Virus record (IMG/VR): IMGVR_UViG_3300045988_162894 | From: a virus | Lineage: Duplodnaviria > Heunggongvirae > Uroviricota > Caudoviricetes | DNA length: 27,920 nt | Direction: 5' to 3' (one strand) | In this document: in pieces, positions 171-13,514 of the stretch | Layout of the letters: the number at the start of each line of letters is the position of its first letter | Numbering within the stretch: position 1 is the stretch's first letter | Made by a program: the position numbers and the translations under genes | Notes under the pieces: generated by a model | Databases searched by the model: none | What the model was told of the DNA's origin: nothing | Seen by the model: only the letters and a program-made list of their open reading frames with translations

Positions 171-1385
171 ATGACTAAGCAAAAAAAACCTAGGAAAGTT
201 CGGATAACAAAAGCTGAAAAAGAACGACGTGCAGAGTTTGATAAAAAGGAAATGAATATACGTGAGTATTTTTCAAATTTAAATAAACATGTGAACGATA
301 TTCGTAGTAAAGAGCGAGATTTTCATGGCCTTATCAGAGAACTGAATTACTTTCAAAAAAATATTGAATTTGAATACGAGAAAACGAGGGACATATCCCA
401 TCCAAGAGACTTAGGCAATGCTCGCGAAAATATACTAAAAGATTTTTTGAAATTAAGCGGTTTATTCCCAAGGCGTTATGCTGTGTCTTCAAGAAGCGTA
501 AGAGTTGCTGCTGCTACAGGACATCTTAGCAACGAGATTGACATCGCATTATATGATGCAGATGATGGATATGTGCTAATGCAGCGTAACGAAATATATG
601 ATGTTTACCCTTCTGAAAATGTATATGGAGTTATTCAAGTAAAATCAAAACTTACTAGGAAAGAATTAAGCAGTGCCATAAAAAATATTGCATCATATAA
701 AAAACTACAAAGAAAAAAGAATGGCCATGGATTTTTTATAAATAACACATCATTCTCAGGGTTCGGAGTTGTTTTTGCATATGAAACAGAAATGCACTGG
801 GATGATATAGTATCTGCTCTTAAGGAAGAAATCCAGAGTAATGAAACAAAATTACTACCCAATGCAGTTTTCATATTAAATAAAGGCTATTTTTTATTTG
901 GTAACAACAATGAATATCTGAGTTATAATTCAGATAGGATGATTAATGCAACTGACATGATTGTACATGGCTTTCCTGATCGTGATGGTTGTTCCTTAGT
1001 TAACTTCCACAAGTTAATGATTACATTGTTGAATAATACTCAAAAAGGGAATGTAAATATAAGTGATTATTATAGATTACCTTTAACTGCTGGAGATTAT
1101 TCTTACGAATTTAATTTTGGTATGTTTAATGAGTTAATTAACTGTGAAGTACACGGTCCATATCATCGTTTATTCAAAGAGAAAGCTTTAAAAACATTAG
1201 TAAATTATTGTGTTAGCAATGAACAGATTAATATGGTTAAGTTAATCGACTTGGCTTTAGGTAAAACTCCAAATAATGAGGAAGCATACCAAAGACAACC
1301 ATCGATGGTGACATTATATAACCCAGAAAATTTGCCACTACCTGAATTAATGTTTAGGGCGGTTCCGATGGTAAAGAATATATGA
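171..1385 (+). CDS. Hypothetical 404-aa protein in AT-rich cargo DNA; possible PD-(D/E)xK-like nuclease core (candidate defence/abortive-infection gene)
   Basis: Uninterrupted 1215-nt ORF in visibly AT-rich DNA where random stops are frequent. Possible extended -10 (TGATATGAT, 118-126) upstream. By eye the motifs E(NARENILKDF)...D(EIDIALYD)...QxK(GVIQVKSK) follow the helix-strand-strand spacing of PD-(D/E)xK nucleases. No tyrosine-recombinase motifs seen. Function is inference only. Confidence 0.6.
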   Translation: MTKQKKPRKVRITKAEKERRAEFDKKEMNIREYFSNLNKHVNDIRSKERDFHGLIRELNYFQKNIEFEYEKTRDISHPRDLGNARENILKDFLKLSGLFPRRYAVSSRSVRVAAATGHLSNEIDIALYDADDGYVLMQRNEIYDVYPSENVYGVIQVKSKLTRKELSSAIKNIASYKKLQRKKNGHGFFINNTSFSGFGVVFAYETEMHWDDIVSALKEEIQSNETKLLPNAVFILNKGYFLFGNNNEYLSYNSDRMINATDMIVHGFPDRDGCSLVNFHKLMITLLNNTQKGNVNISDYYRLPLTAGDYSYEFNFGMFNELINCEVHGPYHRLFKEKALKTLVNYCVSNEQINMVKLIDLALGKTPNNEEAYQRQPSMVTLYNPENLPLPELMFRAVPMVKNI

Positions 1386-5023: not shown

Positions 5024-5650
5024 TTAGAGTTCGTATTGAACTCCTTTGACTACACCAATGATAAGGCAATTACCATTGATAGGGATGTTGGGATACCGAG
5101 GATTTAATGGCACTAAAAACTTTTGAGGGCCATCGATGACTAATTTTTTTACTGTAGCTTCGTTTGTTCCATCAAGTCGAGCGATGACTATTTTTCCATG
5201 ACGAGGTTCTGCATCTGGATCTACAATCACTGTTGCGCCTTCTGGTATTGTTGGGAGGCCATTAGGGTTAGTCATGGAGTCACCTTTAACCTCTAATGCA
5301 AATGAGTTATCACCAATCTTTAATGATGTATCTACCCACTTGTCCACTTCACTAAACACTTCTGCTGCCCTGCACTCAGTAAACTGCCCAGCCTGAACCC
5401 ACGATATTACAGGAACTCTGCGCATGTTTGTGACGAGTTTGCCTTCAAACTCAGCACCATAAAGAATGTAATCTATTGACGTATTGAAGAACTTCGCTAA
5501 TTTCGAAAGTGCCTCCCCACCAGGGGTATTGATGTCTTTCTCCCAGTACCCCACAGCAACGTCGCTTACTCCACAAAATTTACCCAATTCTTTCTGGGAC
5601 GTTCCGGTAACTCTTCTCAGAGCTTTTATACGCTGACCAACCGTTTCCAT
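5024..5650 (-). CDS. cI: CI-like prophage repressor (N-terminal HTH, C-terminal S24 LexA-like autopeptidase domain)
   Basis: 208 aa. N-terminal HTH (QKELGKFCGVSDVAVGYWEKD) and C-terminal S24 peptidase-like segment (GDSM...ATVIVDPD...GKIVIARL). Divergent from a Cro-like gene. No SD upstream, consistent with a leaderless transcript as for lambda cI. Confidence 0.85.
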   Translation of the reverse strand: METVGQRIKALRRVTGTSQKELGKFCGVSDVAVGYWEKDINTPGGEALSKLAKFFNTSIDYILYGAEFEGKLVTNMRRVPVISWVQAGQFTECRAAEVFSEVDKWVDTSLKIGDNSFALEVKGDSMTNPNGLPTIPEGATVIVDPDAEPRHGKIVIARLDGTNEATVKKLVIDGPQKFLVPLNPRYPNIPINGNCLIIGVVKGVQYEL

Positions 5651-5747
5651 AGGAGCACCATTTCTTGAATTGCTAAGTAATCTTAGTTTTTATTGACCAA
5701 AGATAGATTTGTAATTAGCATCTAATAAAACTTAGTTTGGAGGGCGT
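5651..5747. promoter_or_regulatory. Immunity-region operator/promoter interval between cI and cro: palindromes CTAAG-TAAT-CTTAG (5673-5686) and CTAAT-AAAA-CTTAG (5722-5735); candidate PR -35 TTGACC (5693-5698) and -10 TAGCAT (5716-5721)
   Basis: Read directly from sequence. Divergent gene arrangement is typical of lambdoid OR/PR/PRM. Confidence 0.6.
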
Positions 5748-5948
5748 ATGACAACTGACGATATCGAAAGCTACTTCGGCAGTATTGAGAAAGTTGCTGC
5801 TTTTTTCGGCATAACAACTGAAGCCGTTTATCAGTGGCGAAACCGTCCGGGCCAGTTAATTCCAAAAGGACGTGCAGCAGAAGCTGCATATAGAACTTGC
5901 GGACGGTTGCCATTTAAACCTGAGCTTTATGAAAAATCTAATGGATAA
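5748..5948 (+). CDS. cro: Cro-like (YdaS/P22 Cro-type) HTH regulator
   Basis: 66 aa, GGAGGG RBS. HTH with AVYQW motif. Position divergent from the repressor. Confidence 0.7.
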   Translation: MTTDDIESYFGSIEKVAAFFGITTEAVYQWRNRPGQLIPKGRAAEAAYRTCGRLPFKPELYEKSNG

Positions 5949-6537
5949 ATCGATTAACAGAAACCACAGAACGATGAGGCTAACCGTGGGTAAGCATCAC
6001 TGGAAAGTAGAAAAACAGCCTGAGTGGTACGTGAAAGCTGTCAGAAAAACTATCGCAGCGTTGCCGGGTGGTTACGCTGAAGCAGCTGACTGGCTGGATG
6101 TAACAGAAAACGCATTATTTAACCGCCTTCGTGCCGATGGCGATCAGATTTTCCCGCTGGGATGGGCAATGATTTTGCAACGTGCTGGTGGAACTCACTT
6201 CATTGCTGACGCTGTGGCGCAGTCTGCAAATGGCGTCTTTGTGTCTCTTCCTGACGTCGAGGATGTGGACAACGCCGATATTAACCAGCGCCTGCTGGAA
6301 GTCATTGAACAGATTGGCAGTTATTCCAGACAGATTCGTTCGGCAATCGAAGACGGTGTGGTGGAACCGCATGAGAAGACAGCAATTAACGACGAGCTGT
6401 ATCTCTCAATTTCGAAGCTGCAGGAGCATGCAGCACTGGTCTACAAAATCTTTTGCATTTCAGAAAGTAATGACGCCCGCGAGTGTGCAGCTCCGGGCGC
6501 CGTGGCGTGTCGTGACTGTGGAGAAACTAACGCATGA
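5929..6537 (+). CDS. CII-like / YdaT-like early regulatory protein (family assignment uncertain)
   Basis: Occupies the cII position downstream of cro. Start ambiguous (ATG 5929 or 5941, overlapping the cro stop). Family recalled, not verified. Confidence 0.45.
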
Positions 6538-6892
6538 ACAGTTTAACAACACACTACCGTCGCTCGCAACTGATTGCGCTTCCTGTACCGGGTGGAAAAG
6601 CGAAGGTGGAGTATTGCTATGCAGTTAATGTACCAGGTGACAGGGAAATTGTAACCCACAGCTTTGCTGAGTGGGCTGTGGGGGATTTCAACCGGCAGAA
6701 GGAGACAGTCCTTTGCGACAAGTTAACCGCTGGTTCAAAGATCACTACGGAGTGCCCGTCAGAGTCATTCGTTGGGAGCCGGAAACACAACGAGTTATCT
6801 ACCTCCGCGAAGGCTATGAGCATGAGTGCTTCAGCCCGCTCGAACAGTTTCGTCGTAAATTCAGGGAAATAGAGGTCGGTCATGAGCACTAA
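6534..6892 (+). CDS. Hypothetical protein with apparent -1 frame change at a G5 run (6678-6686): N-terminal part in frame of 6534, C-terminal part in frame of 6671
   Basis: The frame-A product becomes low-complexity after about residue 50, while frame B (open only from 6671, no RBS) is protein-like ([33 protein letters not shown]). The joint coincides with the homopolymer GTGGGGGATTT. Confidence 0.4.
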
Positions 6893-7823
6893 ATTAACCG
6901 GCTATGTATGGGATGGTTGCGCTGCATCAGGCATGAAATTATCCAGCGTGGCAATTATGGCCCGCCTGGCTGATTTCAGTAATGACGAAGGTGTGTGCTG
7001 GCCATCAATTGAAACCATTGCCCGTCAGATTGGCGCGGGAATGAGTACCGTCAGAACGGCTATCGCACGGCTGGAAGCAGAAGGCTGGTTAACGCGTAAG
7101 GCGCGTCGCCAGGGTAACCGCAATGCGTCGAATGTTTATCAGCTTAACGTTGCGAAGCTTCAGGCAGCGGCATTTTCTCAACTGTCAGATTCTGACCCGT
7201 CAAAATCTGACGCATCAAAATCTGACCCGTCAAAATTTGATGCGTCGAAATCTGGCAAAAAAGCGGGTTTTCACCCGTCAGAATCTGGCGGGGATCCGTC
7301 AGTAAAATCAAAACATGATCCGTCAGATAAAAAACCTTCTCGTCCGGACGCTTCGCAACCGGACACGCAGACGGATGAACAGGATTTTTTAACTCGCCAT
7401 CCTGATGCGGTTGTATTCAGCCCTAAAAAGCGCCAGTGGGGAACGCAGGATGATTTGACCTGCGCACAGTGGCTCTGGAAAAAAATCATCGCCCTGTACG
7501 AGCAAGCCGCCGAATGTGACGGCGAGGTGGTTCGTCCCAAAGAACCGAACTGGACAGCCTGGGCAAACGAAATTCGCCTGATGTGTGTGCAGGATGGTCG
7601 TACTCACAAACAAATCTGCGAGATGTACAGCCGCGTCAGCCGCGATCCGTTCTGGTGCCGTAACGTGCTCAGCCCGTCGAAGCTGCGGGAAAAATGGGAT
7701 GAGCTTTCCCTGCGCTTATCGCCGTCCGTCAGCACGTACACAGAAAAACGCGAAGACCCGTACTTCAAAGCCAGTTACGACAATGTGGACTACAGCCAGA
7801 TCCCGGCAGGATTCAGGGGGTGA
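6882..7823 (+). CDS. Lambda O-like replication initiation protein (N-terminal wHTH DNA-binding domain, iteron-containing linker, C-terminal domain)
   Basis: 313 aa, GAGGT RBS. N-terminal HTH region. Internal iterons encode the repeated linker SDPSKSDASKSDPSKFDASKSG, as in the lambda O/ori arrangement. Confidence 0.8.
   Translation: MSTKLTGYVWDGCAASGMKLSSVAIMARLADFSNDEGVCWPSIETIARQIGAGMSTVRTAIARLEAEGWLTRKARRQGNRNASNVYQLNVAKLQAAAFSQLSDSDPSKSDASKSDPSKFDASKSGKKAGFHPSESGGDPSVKSKHDPSDKKPSRPDASQPDTQTDEQDFLTRHPDAVVFSPKKRQWGTQDDLTCAQWLWKKIIALYEQAAECDGEVVRPKEPNWTAWANEIRLMCVQDGRTHKQICEMYSRVSRDPFWCRNVLSPSKLREKWDELSLRLSPSVSTYTEKREDPYFKASYDNVDYSQIPAGFRG
7185..7259. repeat. Origin iterons: five tandem 15-bp direct repeats (TCARAWTCTGAYSCR-like) inside the O-like gene, followed by further CCGTCAG motifs (7274-7326) and an A-rich tract
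   Basis: Repeat units read directly at 7185-7199, 7200-7214, 7215-7229, 7230-7244, 7245-7259. Confidence 0.75.
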
Positions 7824-7825
7824 GC

Positions 7826-8314
7826 ATGAGTCTTTTGAATGACGTTCAGAAATTCATTGAAGCCCATCCGGGCTGTACTTCCGGAGACATTGCGGATGCT
7901 TTTGCAGGTTACTCACGGCAGCGCGTTCTGCAGTCAGCAAGCAAGTTACGTCAGAGTGGGCGTGTGGCTCACCGTTGTGAAGGAGATACACGCAGACATT
8001 TCCCGCGCCTGACTGAGAGAGCGCAGGAACCGGAACCACAACCAGTTCGAGAAACCAGACCTGTGCGCAATTTCTATGTCGGCACTAACGATCCACGGGT
8101 GATTTTGTGCCTGACCCGCCAGGCTGAAGAACTGGAGTCCAGGGGCTTATACCGTCGTGCTGCAACCGTGTGGATGGCGGCATTCCGTGAAAGCCACTCC
8201 CAGCCAGAACGAAACAATTTTCTGGCGCGTCGTGAGCGGTGCTTACGGAAAAGCAGCAAGCGCGCTGCATCGGGTGAAGAGTGGTATCTGTCAGGGAATT
8301 ACGTGGGGGCTTAA
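7826..8314 (+). CDS. Hypothetical regulator, possibly PerC-family transcriptional activator-like
   Basis: The motif LESRGLYRRAATVWMAAF resembles the conserved core of PerC/Pch-type proteins as recalled. RBS GGGGG before ATG 7826. Family not verified. Confidence 0.4.
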   Translation: MSLLNDVQKFIEAHPGCTSGDIADAFAGYSRQRVLQSASKLRQSGRVAHRCEGDTRRHFPRLTERAQEPEPQPVRETRPVRNFYVGTNDPRVILCLTRQAEELESRGLYRRAATVWMAAFRESHSQPERNNFLARRERCLRKSSKRAASGEEWYLSGNYVGA

Positions 8315-8640
8315 TGACGACGTTAACTCAATGCCAGCAGCAGGTGCTGGATATGCTGATTTCTTATCAGAAAGAACGTGGCTTCCCGCCAACCAATCAG
8401 GAGGTGGCAACCATGCTGGGATACCGTTCGGTGAATGCAGCGGTGGAGCATCTTCGTGCGCTGGAGAAAAAAGGCGTCATCACGATAAAGCGTGGCGTGG
8501 CCCGGGGGATAACGCTTCATACCGCGGTGAAGGACGACGACAGCGAGGCGGTCGGGATTATCCGCGCACTGCTTGCCGGTGAGGAAAACGCAAAGCTGCG
8601 TGCAACCCACTGGTTACATGAGAGGGGCCTGAAAGTATGA
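8314..8640 (+). CDS. LexA N-terminal DNA-binding-domain-like protein lacking the S24 autopeptidase domain
   Basis: 108 aa. QCQQQVLDMLISYQKERGFPPTNQEVATMLGYRSVNAAVEHLRALEKKGVITIKRGVARGI parallels the LexA winged-HTH domain (ARQQEVFDLI...[36 protein letters not shown]). Start ATG overlaps the upstream stop (TAATG). Confidence 0.65.
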   Translation: MTTLTQCQQQVLDMLISYQKERGFPPTNQEVATMLGYRSVNAAVEHLRALEKKGVITIKRGVARGITLHTAVKDDDSEAVGIIRALLAGEENAKLRATHWLHERGLKV

Positions 8641-9026
8641 AGCTGATCCTGCCTTTTCCGCCCAGCGTGAACACGTACTGGCGACACCCCAACAAAGGGG
8701 CGTTTGCTGGTAAGAGCCTGATAAGCGCGGCGGGGCGAAAATTTCAGAGCGCGGCGTGTGCAGCAATAGTTGAGCAGTTACGTCGTCTGCCAAAACCAAC
8801 GTCGGCACCTGCTTCAGTGGAGATCGTGTTGTTTCCTCCGGATAACAGGATCCGCGATCTGGACAACTATAACAAGGCACTGTTTGACGCCCTGACACAC
8901 GCGGGTGTGTGGGAAGACGACAGCCAGGTGAAAAGAATGCTGGTGGAGTGGGGACCGGTTATCCCGAAAGGGAAGGTCGAGATCACTATCAGTAAGTATG
9001 AGAAACCGGCGGGTGCAGCCGCCTGA
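8637..9026 (+). CDS. rusA: RusA-family Holliday junction resolvase
   Basis: 129 aa. LPFPPSVNTYWRH...DLDNYNKALFDALTHAGVWEDDSQV matches the RusA catalytic core. Typical nin-region position. Confidence 0.85.
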   Translation: MKLILPFPPSVNTYWRHPNKGAFAGKSLISAAGRKFQSAACAAIVEQLRRLPKPTSAPASVEIVLFPPDNRIRDLDNYNKALFDALTHAGVWEDDSQVKRMLVEWGPVIPKGKVEITISKYEKPAGAAA

Positions 9027-9045: not shown

Positions 9046-9855
9046 ATGAATAATCTGATGGTCATTGATGGTATTGAAGTTCGTCGTGATGCTTATGGGC
9101 GTTACAGCCTGAACGATCTGCACAGGGCAGCCGGGGGAGAACAAAAAAACCGCCCGAAATACTGGCTCTCCAATAAGCAAACCTGTGAATTGATTGAACA
9201 ACTTTTCACCGAGGGTGGAATTACGCCTCTGGAACAAAATCAACCAGTTAGCGTCATTAATGGCGGAAATAACCAGGGGACGTATGTCTGCAAAGAACTG
9301 GTGTATGCCTATGCAATGTGGATCAGCCCGTCATTCCATCTGAAGGTGATCCGTACTTTCGATATGGTAACCAGCGCACCGGAAAAATTATCCGGGCAGG
9401 CTGCTGACAAGATGCAGGCTGGAGTGATTCTGCTGGACTTTATGCGCAGGGAGTTAAACCTGTCTAACTCTTCAGTGCTTGGTGCCTGTCAGAAACTCCA
9501 GGAGGCTGTTGGCTTACCGAATCTGGCACCGCGCTATGCCATTGATGCTCCTGCTGACGCGCCTGATGGCTCAAGTCGCCCTACGCTGTCGCTGAGTGCA
9601 CTGCTGAAACAGTATGGTATCCGCCTGACGGCTAATCAGGCATATCACCAGATGGTGAAACTGGGGATCGTCGAGCAGCGCGAACGATACAGTCGTACTG
9701 CGATTAACAACATCAAAAAATTCTGGTCGCTGACAGCGAAAGGTTGCATGTTCGGCAAGAACATCACCAGTCCCGCAAATCCGCGCGAGACGCAGCCGCA
9801 TTTCTTCGAATCCCGATTCCCTGAGCTGTTAAAGCTGCTCGATACCGTTCATTGA
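9046..9855 (+). CDS. KilA-N domain protein (antirepressor-like)
   Basis: The N-terminal 100 aa (GRYSLNDLH...KELVYAYAMWISPSFHLKV) fit the KilA-N domain. GAGGAG RBS. Confidence 0.65.
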   Translation: MNNLMVIDGIEVRRDAYGRYSLNDLHRAAGGEQKNRPKYWLSNKQTCELIEQLFTEGGITPLEQNQPVSVINGGNNQGTYVCKELVYAYAMWISPSFHLKVIRTFDMVTSAPEKLSGQAADKMQAGVILLDFMRRELNLSNSSVLGACQKLQEAVGLPNLAPRYAIDAPADAPDGSSRPTLSLSALLKQYGIRLTANQAYHQMVKLGIVEQRERYSRTAINNIKKFWSLTAKGCMFGKNITSPANPRETQPHFFESRFPELLKLLDTVH

Positions 9856-9856
9856 G

Positions 9857-10852
9857 GTGACCGTGAGAGCATTACTGACCCCTGAAATTGCCCCGCGTAT
9901 GGGGATCGTATTGTTCAGGCCAGGTTCAGAGCTGATGCCCCTGTTTATGCAGGGGCGTGTCCTGCTGGAGCCTGAGCCGGAACGTTATTCATCTTTCGCC
10001 AGTGGTGCCGTTCCGGCGGCATCACAACCGCTGGCGGATGATCCTGCCGTTCGGGCCGTGTTCCGCAATGAGGCAGTGATCCGTCGTGCTGGTGGCGTGG
10101 AATGTCTTGAAAGCTGGTTACTTCGTGAAAAAGGCTGCCAGTGGCCTCATTCCGATTGGCACAGCGAGAACATGACCACAATGCGACACGCGCCGGGCGC
10201 AATCCGTCTGTGCTGGCACTGCGATAACCAGCTGCGTGATCAGTTCACGGAACGGCTGGAATCAATGGCAACGGATAACTGTGCCCGCTGGGTGTTGTCT
10301 GTTGTGCGTCGGGATCTCGGTTTTGATGACAGTCACGTTGTGACAATGCCGGAACTGTGCTGGTGGCTGATTCGTAATGACCTGGCGGATGCCTTACCGG
10401 AAAGTGCAGCCCGTAAGGCACTGAGATTACCGAAGCCTGTTGTGCCGTCTGTCACCCGGGAAAGTGACCTTGTGCCTTCGGTTCCTGCCACCAGCATCAT
10501 CCAGGATAAGGCGAAAAATGTGCTGGCGCTGAAAGTGGATCCGGAGTCGCCGGAGTCTTTTATGTTACGCCCCAAACGTCGCCGCTGGGTTAATGAAAAG
10601 TACACGCGCTGGGTTAAGACGCAGCCGTGCGCATGTTGTGGAAAGCCAGCTGATGATCCCCACCACCTGATAGGCCACGGTCAGGGTGGAATGGGTACAA
10701 AAGCGCATGATCTCTTTGTGTTGCCTTTGTGCAGAAAGCATCACGACGAGCTGCATGCGGATACCGTGACATTTGAAGAGAAGTATGGCTCCCAACTGGA
10801 GCTGATATTTCGTTTTATCGATCGTGCGCTGGCAATTGGCGTACTGGCGTAA
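9857..10852 (+). CDS. DUF968-family phage protein (YdfU-like) with C-terminal HNH-like Cys/His motif
   Basis: 331 aa. C-terminal CACCGKPADDPHHL...HDLFVLPLCRKHHDELH. Sits immediately upstream of Q as in Qin. GTG start. Confidence 0.6.
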   Translation: MTVRALLTPEIAPRMGIVLFRPGSELMPLFMQGRVLLEPEPERYSSFASGAVPAASQPLADDPAVRAVFRNEAVIRRAGGVECLESWLLREKGCQWPHSDWHSENMTTMRHAPGAIRLCWHCDNQLRDQFTERLESMATDNCARWVLSVVRRDLGFDDSHVVTMPELCWWLIRNDLADALPESAARKALRLPKPVVPSVTRESDLVPSVPATSIIQDKAKNVLALKVDPESPESFMLRPKRRRWVNEKYTRWVKTQPCACCGKPADDPHHLIGHGQGGMGTKAHDLFVLPLCRKHHDELHADTVTFEEKYGSQLELIFRFIDRALAIGVLA

Positions 10853-10865
10853 GTGGAGAACGAGC

Positions 10866-11618
10866 ATGAACCTTGAAGCCTTACCAAAATATTACTCCCC
10901 AAAATCTCCAAAATTGAGTGATGCCGCACCGGCGACAGGCTCAGGTGGTTTAACGATTACGGATGTGATGGCTGCGCAGGGGATGGTGCAGTCGAAAGCA
11001 CCGCTTGGGTTTGCCTTATTCCTGGCAAAAGCTGGCGTTCAGGATCCTCAGTTTGCGATTGAAGGTCTGCTCAATTACGCGATGGCACTGGATAACCCGA
11101 CATTGAACAAATTGAGTGAAGAAATCCGGTTACAGATCATCCCTTACCTTGTGAGTTTTGCCTTTGCTGATTATTCCAGGTCTGCGGCAAGTAAGGCTCG
11201 CTGTGAGCCTTGTGCTGGTACTGGATTTCATAATGTATTGCGCGAAGTGGTGAAATACTCCAGAAGCGGGGAGTCTGTTATCAAGGAAGAGTGGGTGAAG
11301 GAACTATGTCAGCATTGTCATGGTAAGGGAGAAGTCAGCACAGCGTGCAGAGGGTGTAAGGGTAAAGGTATTGTCCTGGATGAAAAAAGGACCCGGCTTC
11401 ATGGCGCGCCTGTTTATAAGATTTGTGGGCGTTGCAATGGAAACCGGTTTAGTCGTTTACCAACGACACTGGCGCGGTGTCATGTCCAGAAGCTGGTACC
11501 AGACCTGACTGATTATCAGTGGTACAAAGGATATGCAGATGTCATTGATAAACTGGTTACAAAGTGCTGGCAGGAAGAAGCATATGCTGAGGTGCAATTA
11601 AGAAAAGTGACGAGATAA
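10866..11618 (+). CDS. Late-gene antitermination protein Q-like
   Basis: Zinc-binding Cys clusters (CEPCAGTG, CQHCHGKG, CRGCKGKG). Position directly upstream of a promoter-like element and terminator, then the lysis genes. Confidence 0.7.
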   Translation: MNLEALPKYYSPKSPKLSDAAPATGSGGLTITDVMAAQGMVQSKAPLGFALFLAKAGVQDPQFAIEGLLNYAMALDNPTLNKLSEEIRLQIIPYLVSFAFADYSRSAASKARCEPCAGTGFHNVLREVVKYSRSGESVIKEEWVKELCQHCHGKGEVSTACRGCKGKGIVLDEKRTRLHGAPVYKICGRCNGNRFSRLPTTLARCHVQKLVPDLTDYQWYKGYADVIDKLVTKCWQEEAYAEVQLRKVTR

Positions 11619-12546: not shown

Positions 12547-12762
12547 ATGTCAAATAAAATGACTGGTTTAGTAAAATGGTTTAACGCTGATAAAGGTTTC
12601 GGCTTTATTTCTCCTGTTGATGGTAGTAAAGATGTGTTTGTGCATTTTTCTGCGATTCAGAATGATAATTTTCGAACCTTATTTGAAGGTCAAAAGGTTA
12701 CCTTCTCTGTAGAGAGTGGTGCTAAAGGTCCTGCAGCAGCAAATGTCATAATTACTGATTAA
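12547..12762 (+). CDS. cspB: Cold-shock protein CspB-like (CspA family)
   Basis: 71 aa [38 protein letters not shown]...; AAGGA RBS. Confidence 0.8.
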
Positions 12763-13296: not shown

Positions 13297-13514
13297 AGGC
13301 TTTTCCTGTATAAATGGCCGTATACAGTACACTAAATATGAAAACATATCTCGTATTATTATTTAATATATGATTTTCTTTTAAAATAATTACCCACATT
13401 TTTAATGTGTCTGTTTTTTAGCGCCGTTGAGAACAACGTTTGCTATAAAAACTAACCCATAGACTCCGATCTTTTCAAACATATTGCACCATCTGTGTAC
13501 ATCGGGGTGAGGAT

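Follow-up and report, generated by a model that had tools for sequence, protein, structure and literature searches.

A LexA-type DNA-binding head without an autocleavage domain in the early-right operon of a lambdoid prophage: a possible regulator with altered operator specificity

The 27,920-nucleotide stretch of viral DNA filed as IMG/VR record IMGVR_UViG_3300045988_162894 (hereafter the window, meaning the whole stretch that was analysed) is a lambdoid prophage. At positions 8314–8640 of its + strand lies a gene of 108 codons (ATG at 8314, TGA at 8638–8640), whose product, MTTLTQCQQQ...HERGLKV, consists of a LexA-type DNA-binding domain (DBD), a flexible linker and a conserved helical tail, lacks the autocleavage domain of LexA and is encoded in an early operon. 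The stop codon of the upstream PerC/YfdN-like gene (7820–8314, +; Pfam PerC E = 7.9e-9) overlaps the start of this gene in the sequence TAATG, and its own stop codon overlaps the start of rusA, the gene for a Holliday-junction resolvase (8637–9026, +; Pfam RusA E = 6.6e-15), in the sequence ATGA. A preliminary description, made from the DNA letters alone, had placed the 108-amino-acid open reading frame (ORF) at these positions directly upstream of rusA, and this placement holds; a longer, 119-amino-acid form starting from GTG is not the correct one, because homologues begin at the same methionine as the 108-amino-acid form. It is proposed here, with an even chance of being right, that the protein is a LexA-derived, RecA-insensitive regulator of altered operator specificity, produced from the delayed-early rightward operon.

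The head of the protein is a winged helix-turn-helix (wHTH) comprising residues 1–69 (8314–8520, +), and its similarity to LexA is far beyond chance. The Pfam profile LexA_DNA_bind (PF01726) is matched over its entire length (profile positions 1–65 of 65; E = 3e-19; 69 bits against a gathering cutoff of 23.7). Among solved structures, the best sequence matches are E. coli LexA or its N-terminal domain, with E-values from 6e-16 (1lea) to 3e-15 over residues 2–70 or 2–90, and the identity is much closer to this domain than to T. maritima LexA. Two AlphaFold2 models, with overall predicted local distance difference test (pLDDT) values of 79 and 84, place helices at residues 6–22, 28–35 and 40–52 and a β wing at residues 56–68, the head as a whole reaching pLDDT 81–91. 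In a Foldseek search, the first model superposed best on 1lea and 3jso, with a root-mean-square deviation of 1.4–1.6 Å over 67–70 residues at approximately 50% identity; weaker fold matches were the wHTH regulators MntR, ArsR and MecI. The earlier recognition of a LexA N-terminal winged helix-turn-helix in this protein is thus borne out by the profile match, by the match to 1lea and by the superposed model.

The recognition helix, assigned by alignment to E. coli LexA, spans residues 40–52, VNAAVEHLRALEK (8431–8469, +). DNA is contacted in LexA by residues Ser39, Asn41, Ala42, Glu44 and Glu45 (PMC3091678). Four of these five residues (Ser39, Asn41, Ala42 and Glu45) are kept in the E. coli clade to which the window protein belongs, whereas Glu44 is replaced by valine, so that the LexA contact set stands only in part. 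The stretch RSVNAAVEHL differs from LexA at two positions only, P40V and E44V, and the wing residues Arg64–Gly65 are also those of LexA. The window protein therefore shares with the LexA N-terminal domain (residues 1–84; 1lea, 3jso) both the winged-helix fold and residues Ser39, Asn41, Ala42, Glu45 and Arg64–Gly65.

Homologues were collected in two rounds: 1.84 billion representative proteins were scanned in full, and a profile search was then run. Across this family, position 44 is occupied by V, A, T, N, L or F, and glutamate is found there in none of the 120 tail-bearing members; it is present in 9 of the 10 LexA proteins of the same hit set that carry an S24 peptidase domain. Positions 42–46 vary by lineage, the segment reading NAAVEH, NAATDM, NTIAGH, NGAFEH, NAVLLH, NAAAEH, NTVFIH or NAANDH. 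The recognition helix is diverse across the 22 clusters formed at 80% identity, and it differs among members from E. coli, Salmonella, Cronobacter, Klebsiella, Kosakonia and Atlantibacter. Ser39, Asn41, Arg64, Gly65 and several other residues are invariant, which indicates that DNA binding as such is under selection. The diversity of the helix looks like the mark of lineage-specific operators. The Enterobacteriaceae hosts concerned share one SOS box, and a helix that varies among phages of such hosts makes a conserved occupancy of that box unlikely.

The same residues bear on an alternative explanation, in which the protein is a non-cleavable mimic that holds host LexA operators and keeps SOS genes, or the LexA-controlled genes of competitors, repressed after LexA has been cleaved. 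The identity of approximately 50% to the N-terminal domain of E. coli LexA points to an enterobacterial lexA as the source of a captured gene, and the retention of Ser39, Asn41, Ala42, Glu45 and Arg64–Gly65 in this clade is what such a mimic would display. Since the clade departs from LexA at only two helix positions, the explanation stays alive, as a possibility of rather low probability. It is opposed by the loss of Glu44 in every family member, and Glu45 is lacking as well in Klebsiella (NAVLLH), in the Citrobacter protein P0086 (NTIAGH) and in the Salmonella Choleraesuis protein P0217 (NTVFIH).

No match to Peptidase_S24 was found in the 108-amino-acid protein by Pfam profile search. The LexA equivalog model TIGR00498 is covered only from position 1 to 91 of 203, at 70.7 bits, below the curated cutoff of 110.95. 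Autocleavage is impossible, because both the S24 domain and the Ser119/Lys156 dyad are absent; that the protein is non-cleavable, as had been supposed from the letters, is therefore upheld at the level of sequence. Of what characterises a LexA repressor proper, the window protein has the head and is without the S24 domain and its Ser119/Lys156 dyad, a score above the cutoff and the full set of DNA contacts, Glu44 among them; it is not a LexA. In its family, moreover, the Ala-Gly pair of the LexA cleavage site is not conserved. LexA cleavage products are targeted to ClpXP and Lon (PMC6590174), whereas the window protein is a stable gene product.

The preliminary description had the protein ending where the linker and peptidase domain of LexA would begin. 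No peptidase domain does follow, but the head is succeeded by 39 further residues, which include a tail specific to the family (residues 75–103; 8536–8622, +). AlphaFold2 predicts two amphipathic helices in this tail, at residues 75–88 and 93–103, with pLDDT 86–88, joined to the head by a linker of low confidence at residues 70–74 (block pLDDT 62). The predicted template modelling score of 0.58 and the low-confidence linker fit a protein of two modules. The tail is conserved across the family at 40–50% identity, its hydrophobic pattern is conserved across the 22 clusters, and a Foldseek search of the PDB returned no structural match for it.

HMMER aligns the tail stretch IIRALLAGE with LVGRVAAGE of LexA, the stretch that holds the Ala84–Gly85 cleavage site, so that Ala88–Gly89 (in LLAGEE) falls opposite VAAGEP. 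The idea that the tail is a retained cleavage-site loop, cut in trans by LexA, was considered and rejected: family members do not consistently have the Ala-Gly pair, and both AlphaFold2 models predict a helix for the segment. For the same reasons the stretch is possibly a remnant of ancestry and not a cleavage site.

In LexA, the dimer interface lies in the C-terminal domain, which combines dimerisation with cleavage; the window protein has its own two-helix tail in that place. In MntR, ArsR and MecI, helical dimerisation regions follow the wHTH. As the LexA interface is missing and the fold resembles these regulators, the tail is probably a dimerisation module. Given this additional tail and the altered residue in the recognition helix, the protein is probably not a simple stand-in for LexA.

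The absence of the C-terminal domain also bears on a further explanation, in which host LexA is the partner: the protein would pair with it in a heterodimer, or sit next to it on one SOS box, and alter its repression or cleavage. In the LexA–DNA complex the wings of two DBDs contact each other, so two DBDs can touch on DNA; this wing–wing contact, and the LexA–DNA structures 3jso and 3jsp among the best fold matches, would suit such a partner. The small protein gp7 of the Bacillus tectivirus GIL01, which modulates LexA directly, provides a precedent (PMC6182141). Against it, the LexA dimer interface is absent, the tail is predicted to be helical and does not detectably resemble the C-terminal domain of LexA, and neither co-variation nor another sign of interaction was found. 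A LexA partner is accordingly very improbable, and the heterodimer that had been entertained earlier is unlikely for want of the C-terminal domain.

The genes around the locus bear on when the protein would be made. The cI gene (5024–5650, −), with HTH_3 and Peptidase_S24 profile matches, encodes the prophage's own repressor, which is of the conventional S24 type and presumably RecA-cleavable. A PR-like promoter match, TTGACC-17-TAGCAT (5693–5721, +; a consensus match in a promoter scan), separates it from cro (5748–5948, +), which is followed in window order by a CII-like gene and a replication gene of the HTH_36 type (6882–7823), all assigned by profile match. Downstream of rusA lie, likewise by profile match, genes for a KilA-N protein (9046–9855) and a DUF968/HNH protein (9857–10852), and then an ORF (10824–11618) that is unscored by profile and occupies the position of the Q antiterminator of relatives. 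In related phages, Q is the factor on which late transcription is predicted to rely.

From the PR-like site up to the LexA-DBD gene, the promoter scan gave no promoter-like match on the + strand, and a promoter of the gene's own was rejected on this ground. Transcription of the gene thus likely starts at the PR-like site. Since no promoter-like match lies between the two and translation of the gene is coupled to that of both neighbours, the gene should be a delayed-early (nin-region) lytic gene of the early-right operon, and not one expressed in the lysogen. In phage SfV, the predicted dam promoter is weak, and the window differs by one base inside the stretch annotated as its −35 element. The preliminary description had envisaged a dampening of host SOS or of prophage induction; a constitutive dampening of induction in the lysogen is not to be expected of a gene that lies in the early-right operon and lacks a promoter-like site of its own. 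An S24-type cI is, besides, already encoded by the prophage. Expression from a lytic early operon likewise counts against the non-cleavable SOS mimic.

Taken together, a mechanism may be outlined for the proposed regulator of altered specificity. The protein would be produced only when the early-right operon is transcribed, i.e. after induction or infection. The tail would replace the C-terminal domain of LexA as the dimerisation element, and, with the tail standing in for that domain, the protein would bind a palindromic operator as a dimer. This operator would probably be akin to the host SOS box CTGT-N8-ACAG without being identical to it, and each phage lineage would probably have its own version, because Glu44 is replaced throughout the family by a hydrophobic (as here) or other non-acidic residue and the helix varies between phages. 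At its operators, the protein would most likely repress one or few phage or host promoters or, like GIL01 gp6, activate them, and RecA* would be unable to switch it off.

Several points weigh against this proposal. Dimerisation through the tail is inferred, and regulation may run in either direction, repression or activation. Palindromes with 5-bp arms and spacers of 2–14 were enumerated in the window and 11 related loci, inverted repeats in intergenic regions being included; within these sequences no recurrent palindrome tracks the gene, and no candidate operator emerged. Finally, the helix of this clade is only two positions away from that of LexA, and residual or even good binding to an SOS box is possible.

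In the window itself no SOS box was found: no exact CTGT-N8-ACAG site is present, the sites with one mismatch are at chance level (13 against 9.1 ± 3.2 expected), and the best 20-mers in the window have 7 mismatches to the SOS consensus TACTGTATATATATACAGTA. A search for such sites in the prophage had been suggested as a check, and its outcome weakens the earlier idea that the protein occupies SOS boxes, as do the absence of Glu44 from all 120 family members and the variation of the helix across hosts; the same lack of an SOS box speaks against the SOS mimic. CTG-N10-CAG sites are more numerous than in shuffled sequence (12 against 5.8 ± 2.2), but all are intragenic, and dinucleotide shuffles do not retain any codon bias for CTG and CAG. 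A site at 1884 lies inside an excisionase-like ORF. The one-mismatch sites, the best 20-mers, the CTG-N10-CAG sites and the site at 1884 were all rejected as targets.

Two further sets of repeats were noted. At 13306–13327 of the window, a perfect 7-bp inverted repeat, CTGTATA-N8-TATACAG, contains SOS-like half-sites at N14 spacing; it abuts the start of a small − strand ORF (~13297 to ~13128) and overlaps its ribosome-binding region, and could be an RNA hairpin or an operator. In the Klebsiella locus L002, four intergenic TCCGCT-N10-AGCGGA palindromes with variable centres (at 2010, 3271, 3313 and 5190) may be REP-like elements.

Related phages stand in a more SOS-related context, which favours the mimic. 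Exact SOS cores number 5 in mEp460, 4 in cdtI and 2 in SfV, against 0.53 expected, with an excess at N8 spacing only, so that complete genomes of phages bearing the gene are enriched in them; mEp460 and cdtI also carry dinI. The boxes of the relatives lie upstream of dinI, in one type of cI, in rha, and at the start of a DNA methyltransferase gene of the late region. These modules (dinI, the different cI type, rha and the late methyltransferase) were not seen in the window, and the boxes are no proof of binding by the family, because host LexA alone explains them; both points count against the mimic. The SOS association is suggestive for the theme, and binding of the family to SOS boxes is not thereby established.

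The box at the methyltransferase gene, TACTGTAAAAATAAACAGTG, begins 8 nt after the ATG and is conserved in all three phages in which it was seen (SfV 34170–34189, mEp460 41021–41040, cdtI 44083–44102); the gene that bears it is located between Q and holin. Intragenic boxes are also found in S24-type cI genes, at mEp460 31970–31989 and at ~2190–2209 of the Cronobacter loci L005–L007. These read TACTGTTTTTACATACAGTA and TACTGTTTTTATATACAGTA, have 3 and 2 mismatches to the consensus, respectively, and lie ~165–230 nt from the start codon.

In Klebsiella (L002–L004, 5385–5404), a near-perfect SOS box, TACTGTTTATTTATACAGTA, overlaps the −10 element of a promoter, TTGAAC-17-TATACT. Behind it follow dinI (5425–5658), a small ORF, the LexA-DBD homologue (6001–6393), another small ORF and DUF968. 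This homologue, which sits in a prophage remnant, is probably SOS-induced, given the position of the box ahead of the gene string. The placement downstream of dinI and an SOS box again favours the mimic, yet the helix of the homologue, SSSNAVLLHL, lacks both glutamates.

The only characterised truncated LexA encoded by a phage that was found, and hence the closest characterised analogue, is gp6 of GIL01. GIL01 gp6 binds a palindromic site that differs from the LexA boxes of the same promoter, and it activates the late promoter P3 (PMC6182141). It thereby demonstrates that truncated LexA proteins are able to acquire a new DNA site along with a new role. Like the window protein, it is the product of an early gene and consists of a LexA DBD without the cleavage domain. 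It differs in being 66 amino acids long, ending right after the wing without a tail, deriving from Bacillus LexA and having the helix VSHKTAHRYL; the viruses also differ in type, GIL01 being a tectivirus and the window family belonging to lambdoid siphoviruses or myoviruses. BLASTP gave no alignment between gp6 and the window protein, and gp6 is an independent truncation.

Within the nin region itself, lambda NinH offers another comparison. NinH, a small protein and truncated mimic of the host DNA-binding protein Fis, acts as a homodimer (PMC7166090). Its fold and its host model are unrelated to those of the window protein (Fis, not LexA), and the likeness is one of genome position and logic only. 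The precedent is relevant to a third alternative, in which the window protein would be a small dimeric DNA-binding protein with an architectural or recombination-accessory role, working NinH-like with RusA, the DUF968 nuclease or a methyltransferase.

Gene order lends this accessory role some appeal. The stop codon of the gene overlaps the rusA start, the gene lies directly before rusA in SfV, mEp460, cdtI, Salmonella, Atlantibacter and Kosakonia, and methyltransferases of three unrelated families are found just upstream. However, Klebsiella homologues have no rusA, in Cronobacter an opposite-strand gene separates the two, and there is no methyltransferase in the window. A variable helix combined with invariant Ser39 and Asn41 is, in addition, more typical of sequence-specific regulators than of architectural proteins that bind DNA non-specifically, and the accessory role is regarded as unlikely.

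The wider cassette, PerC-[methyltransferase]-LexA-DBD-RusA-[KilA-N or Rha/ANT]-DUF968-Q, is conserved in SfV, mEp460, cdtI and prophages of Salmonella, Cronobacter, Atlantibacter and Kosakonia. In most relatives, a DNA methyltransferase gene lies exactly at the junction of the PerC and LexA-DBD genes, and this upstream slot is filled by PF05869 (Dam), PF02086 (MethyltransfD12) or PF00145 (C5) enzymes (L005–L012, L013–L015). The window has no gene in this slot, and its junction at 8311–8316, GGGGGCTTAATGA, is identical to the SfV orf40/dam junction. That unrelated methyltransferases fill the slot and that the two junctions are equal suggests cassette exchange at this point.

Members of the family are 105–135 amino acids long and share the layout of DBD plus tail, at 39–66% identity. 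They occur in prophages of E. coli, Salmonella, Citrobacter, Cronobacter, Klebsiella, Kosakonia, Atlantibacter, Enterobacter and Raoultella, one Klebsiella cluster alone having 1017 members. A length of 105–135 residues, a LexA DBD, a non-acidic residue 44, an amphipathic tail and a nin-region location define the family, and the window protein has all of these traits. The gene is present in 2233 of 5426 complete E. coli genomes, and proteins 95–98% identical to that of the window are encoded by SfV, SfII, SfIV, cdtI, mEp460, Stx2c phages and some Stx2a phages. Some proteins (P0131, P0148, P0161 and P0187) have two LexA-type DBDs in tandem in a single polypeptide, with a separate recognition helix in each (e.g. 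SPNGVMCHL twice), and could work as single-chain 'dimers' of the LexA head.

The observation of a LexA-like sequence is not new, as the family is already catalogued under labels given by homology. Residues 1–108 match positions 1–106 of 106 of PHROG 362 ('transcriptional repressor'; E = 5.2e-59), and nothing in its sequence sets the window protein apart from PHROG 362, mEp460_046 or SfV orf42, which belong to the same family. RefSeq uses 'LexA family protein' or 'LexA family transcriptional regulator', mEp460_046 and its SfII counterpart are called 'LexA DNA binding domain protein', Stx2a_1447 is 'repressor, lexA family' and SfV orf42 is 'unknown'. No experiment was found behind the 'repressor' label of the PHROG 362/RefSeq family, and no functional study of the enterobacterial family was found in the literature searched, whose coverage lacks most subscription-journal papers. 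In a PADLOC search for defence-system membership, the protein gave only an insignificant wHTH match.

The lack of a published function in this literature, and the many truncated, frameshifted or fused variants in databases, would agree with a functionless relic of a captured lexA that is merely carried in the nin region. Such a relic is hardly credible in view of the 95–99% conservation of the full-length form in 2208 E. coli records, the 40–50% identity across genera and the invariant contact and core residues. Synonymous changes also outnumber non-synonymous ones, with 16 and 3 differing codons, respectively, in the comparison with phage cdtI. Judged by this conservation, the gene is a functional one.

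Prophage induction, Shiga-toxin release, mutagenesis and persistence are all under the control of the SOS response, and a LexA head that RecA* cannot remove would be a simple phage route to rewriting that response. The family is carried by Stx2c, Stx2a, cdt and serotype-converting phages and by approximately two-fifths of complete E. coli genomes. If its members bind SOS-like operators, co-resident prophages and SOS genes would be affected after DNA damage. If they bind phage-specific sites, the family would be a further case, beside GIL01 gp6, of a captured LexA head that has been reused, now with its own dimerisation tail.

A broader and rather doubtful proposal is that the family forms a widespread class of 'uncleavable LexA' proteins, switched on after LexA has been destroyed. 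Through tail-mediated dimers and a half-site changed by the Glu44 substitution, such proteins would re-lock a subset of SOS-box-like operators. The targets would be operators of the host or of rival mobile elements (LexA-controlled antirepressors, colicins or toxins), and competing SOS programmes would be shut down during lytic growth. If this were true, the gene, which is found in approximately 40% of complete E. coli genomes and in Stx2-converting phages, would represent a common and unrecognised layer of SOS control.

Two ORFs elsewhere in the window are recorded for completeness. At 171–1385 (+), at the left edge of the prophage, a 404-amino-acid protein matches DUF6602 (E = 4e-22) and the PADLOC models for PD-DExK and NucC nucleases (E = 2e-24 to 1e-17), and could be a defence-type moron. 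At ~12548–12760 (+), in an AT-rich region between the ORF at the Q position and the lysis genes, lies an ORF that resembles a cold-shock protein by eye, an arrangement as in Qin-type prophages.

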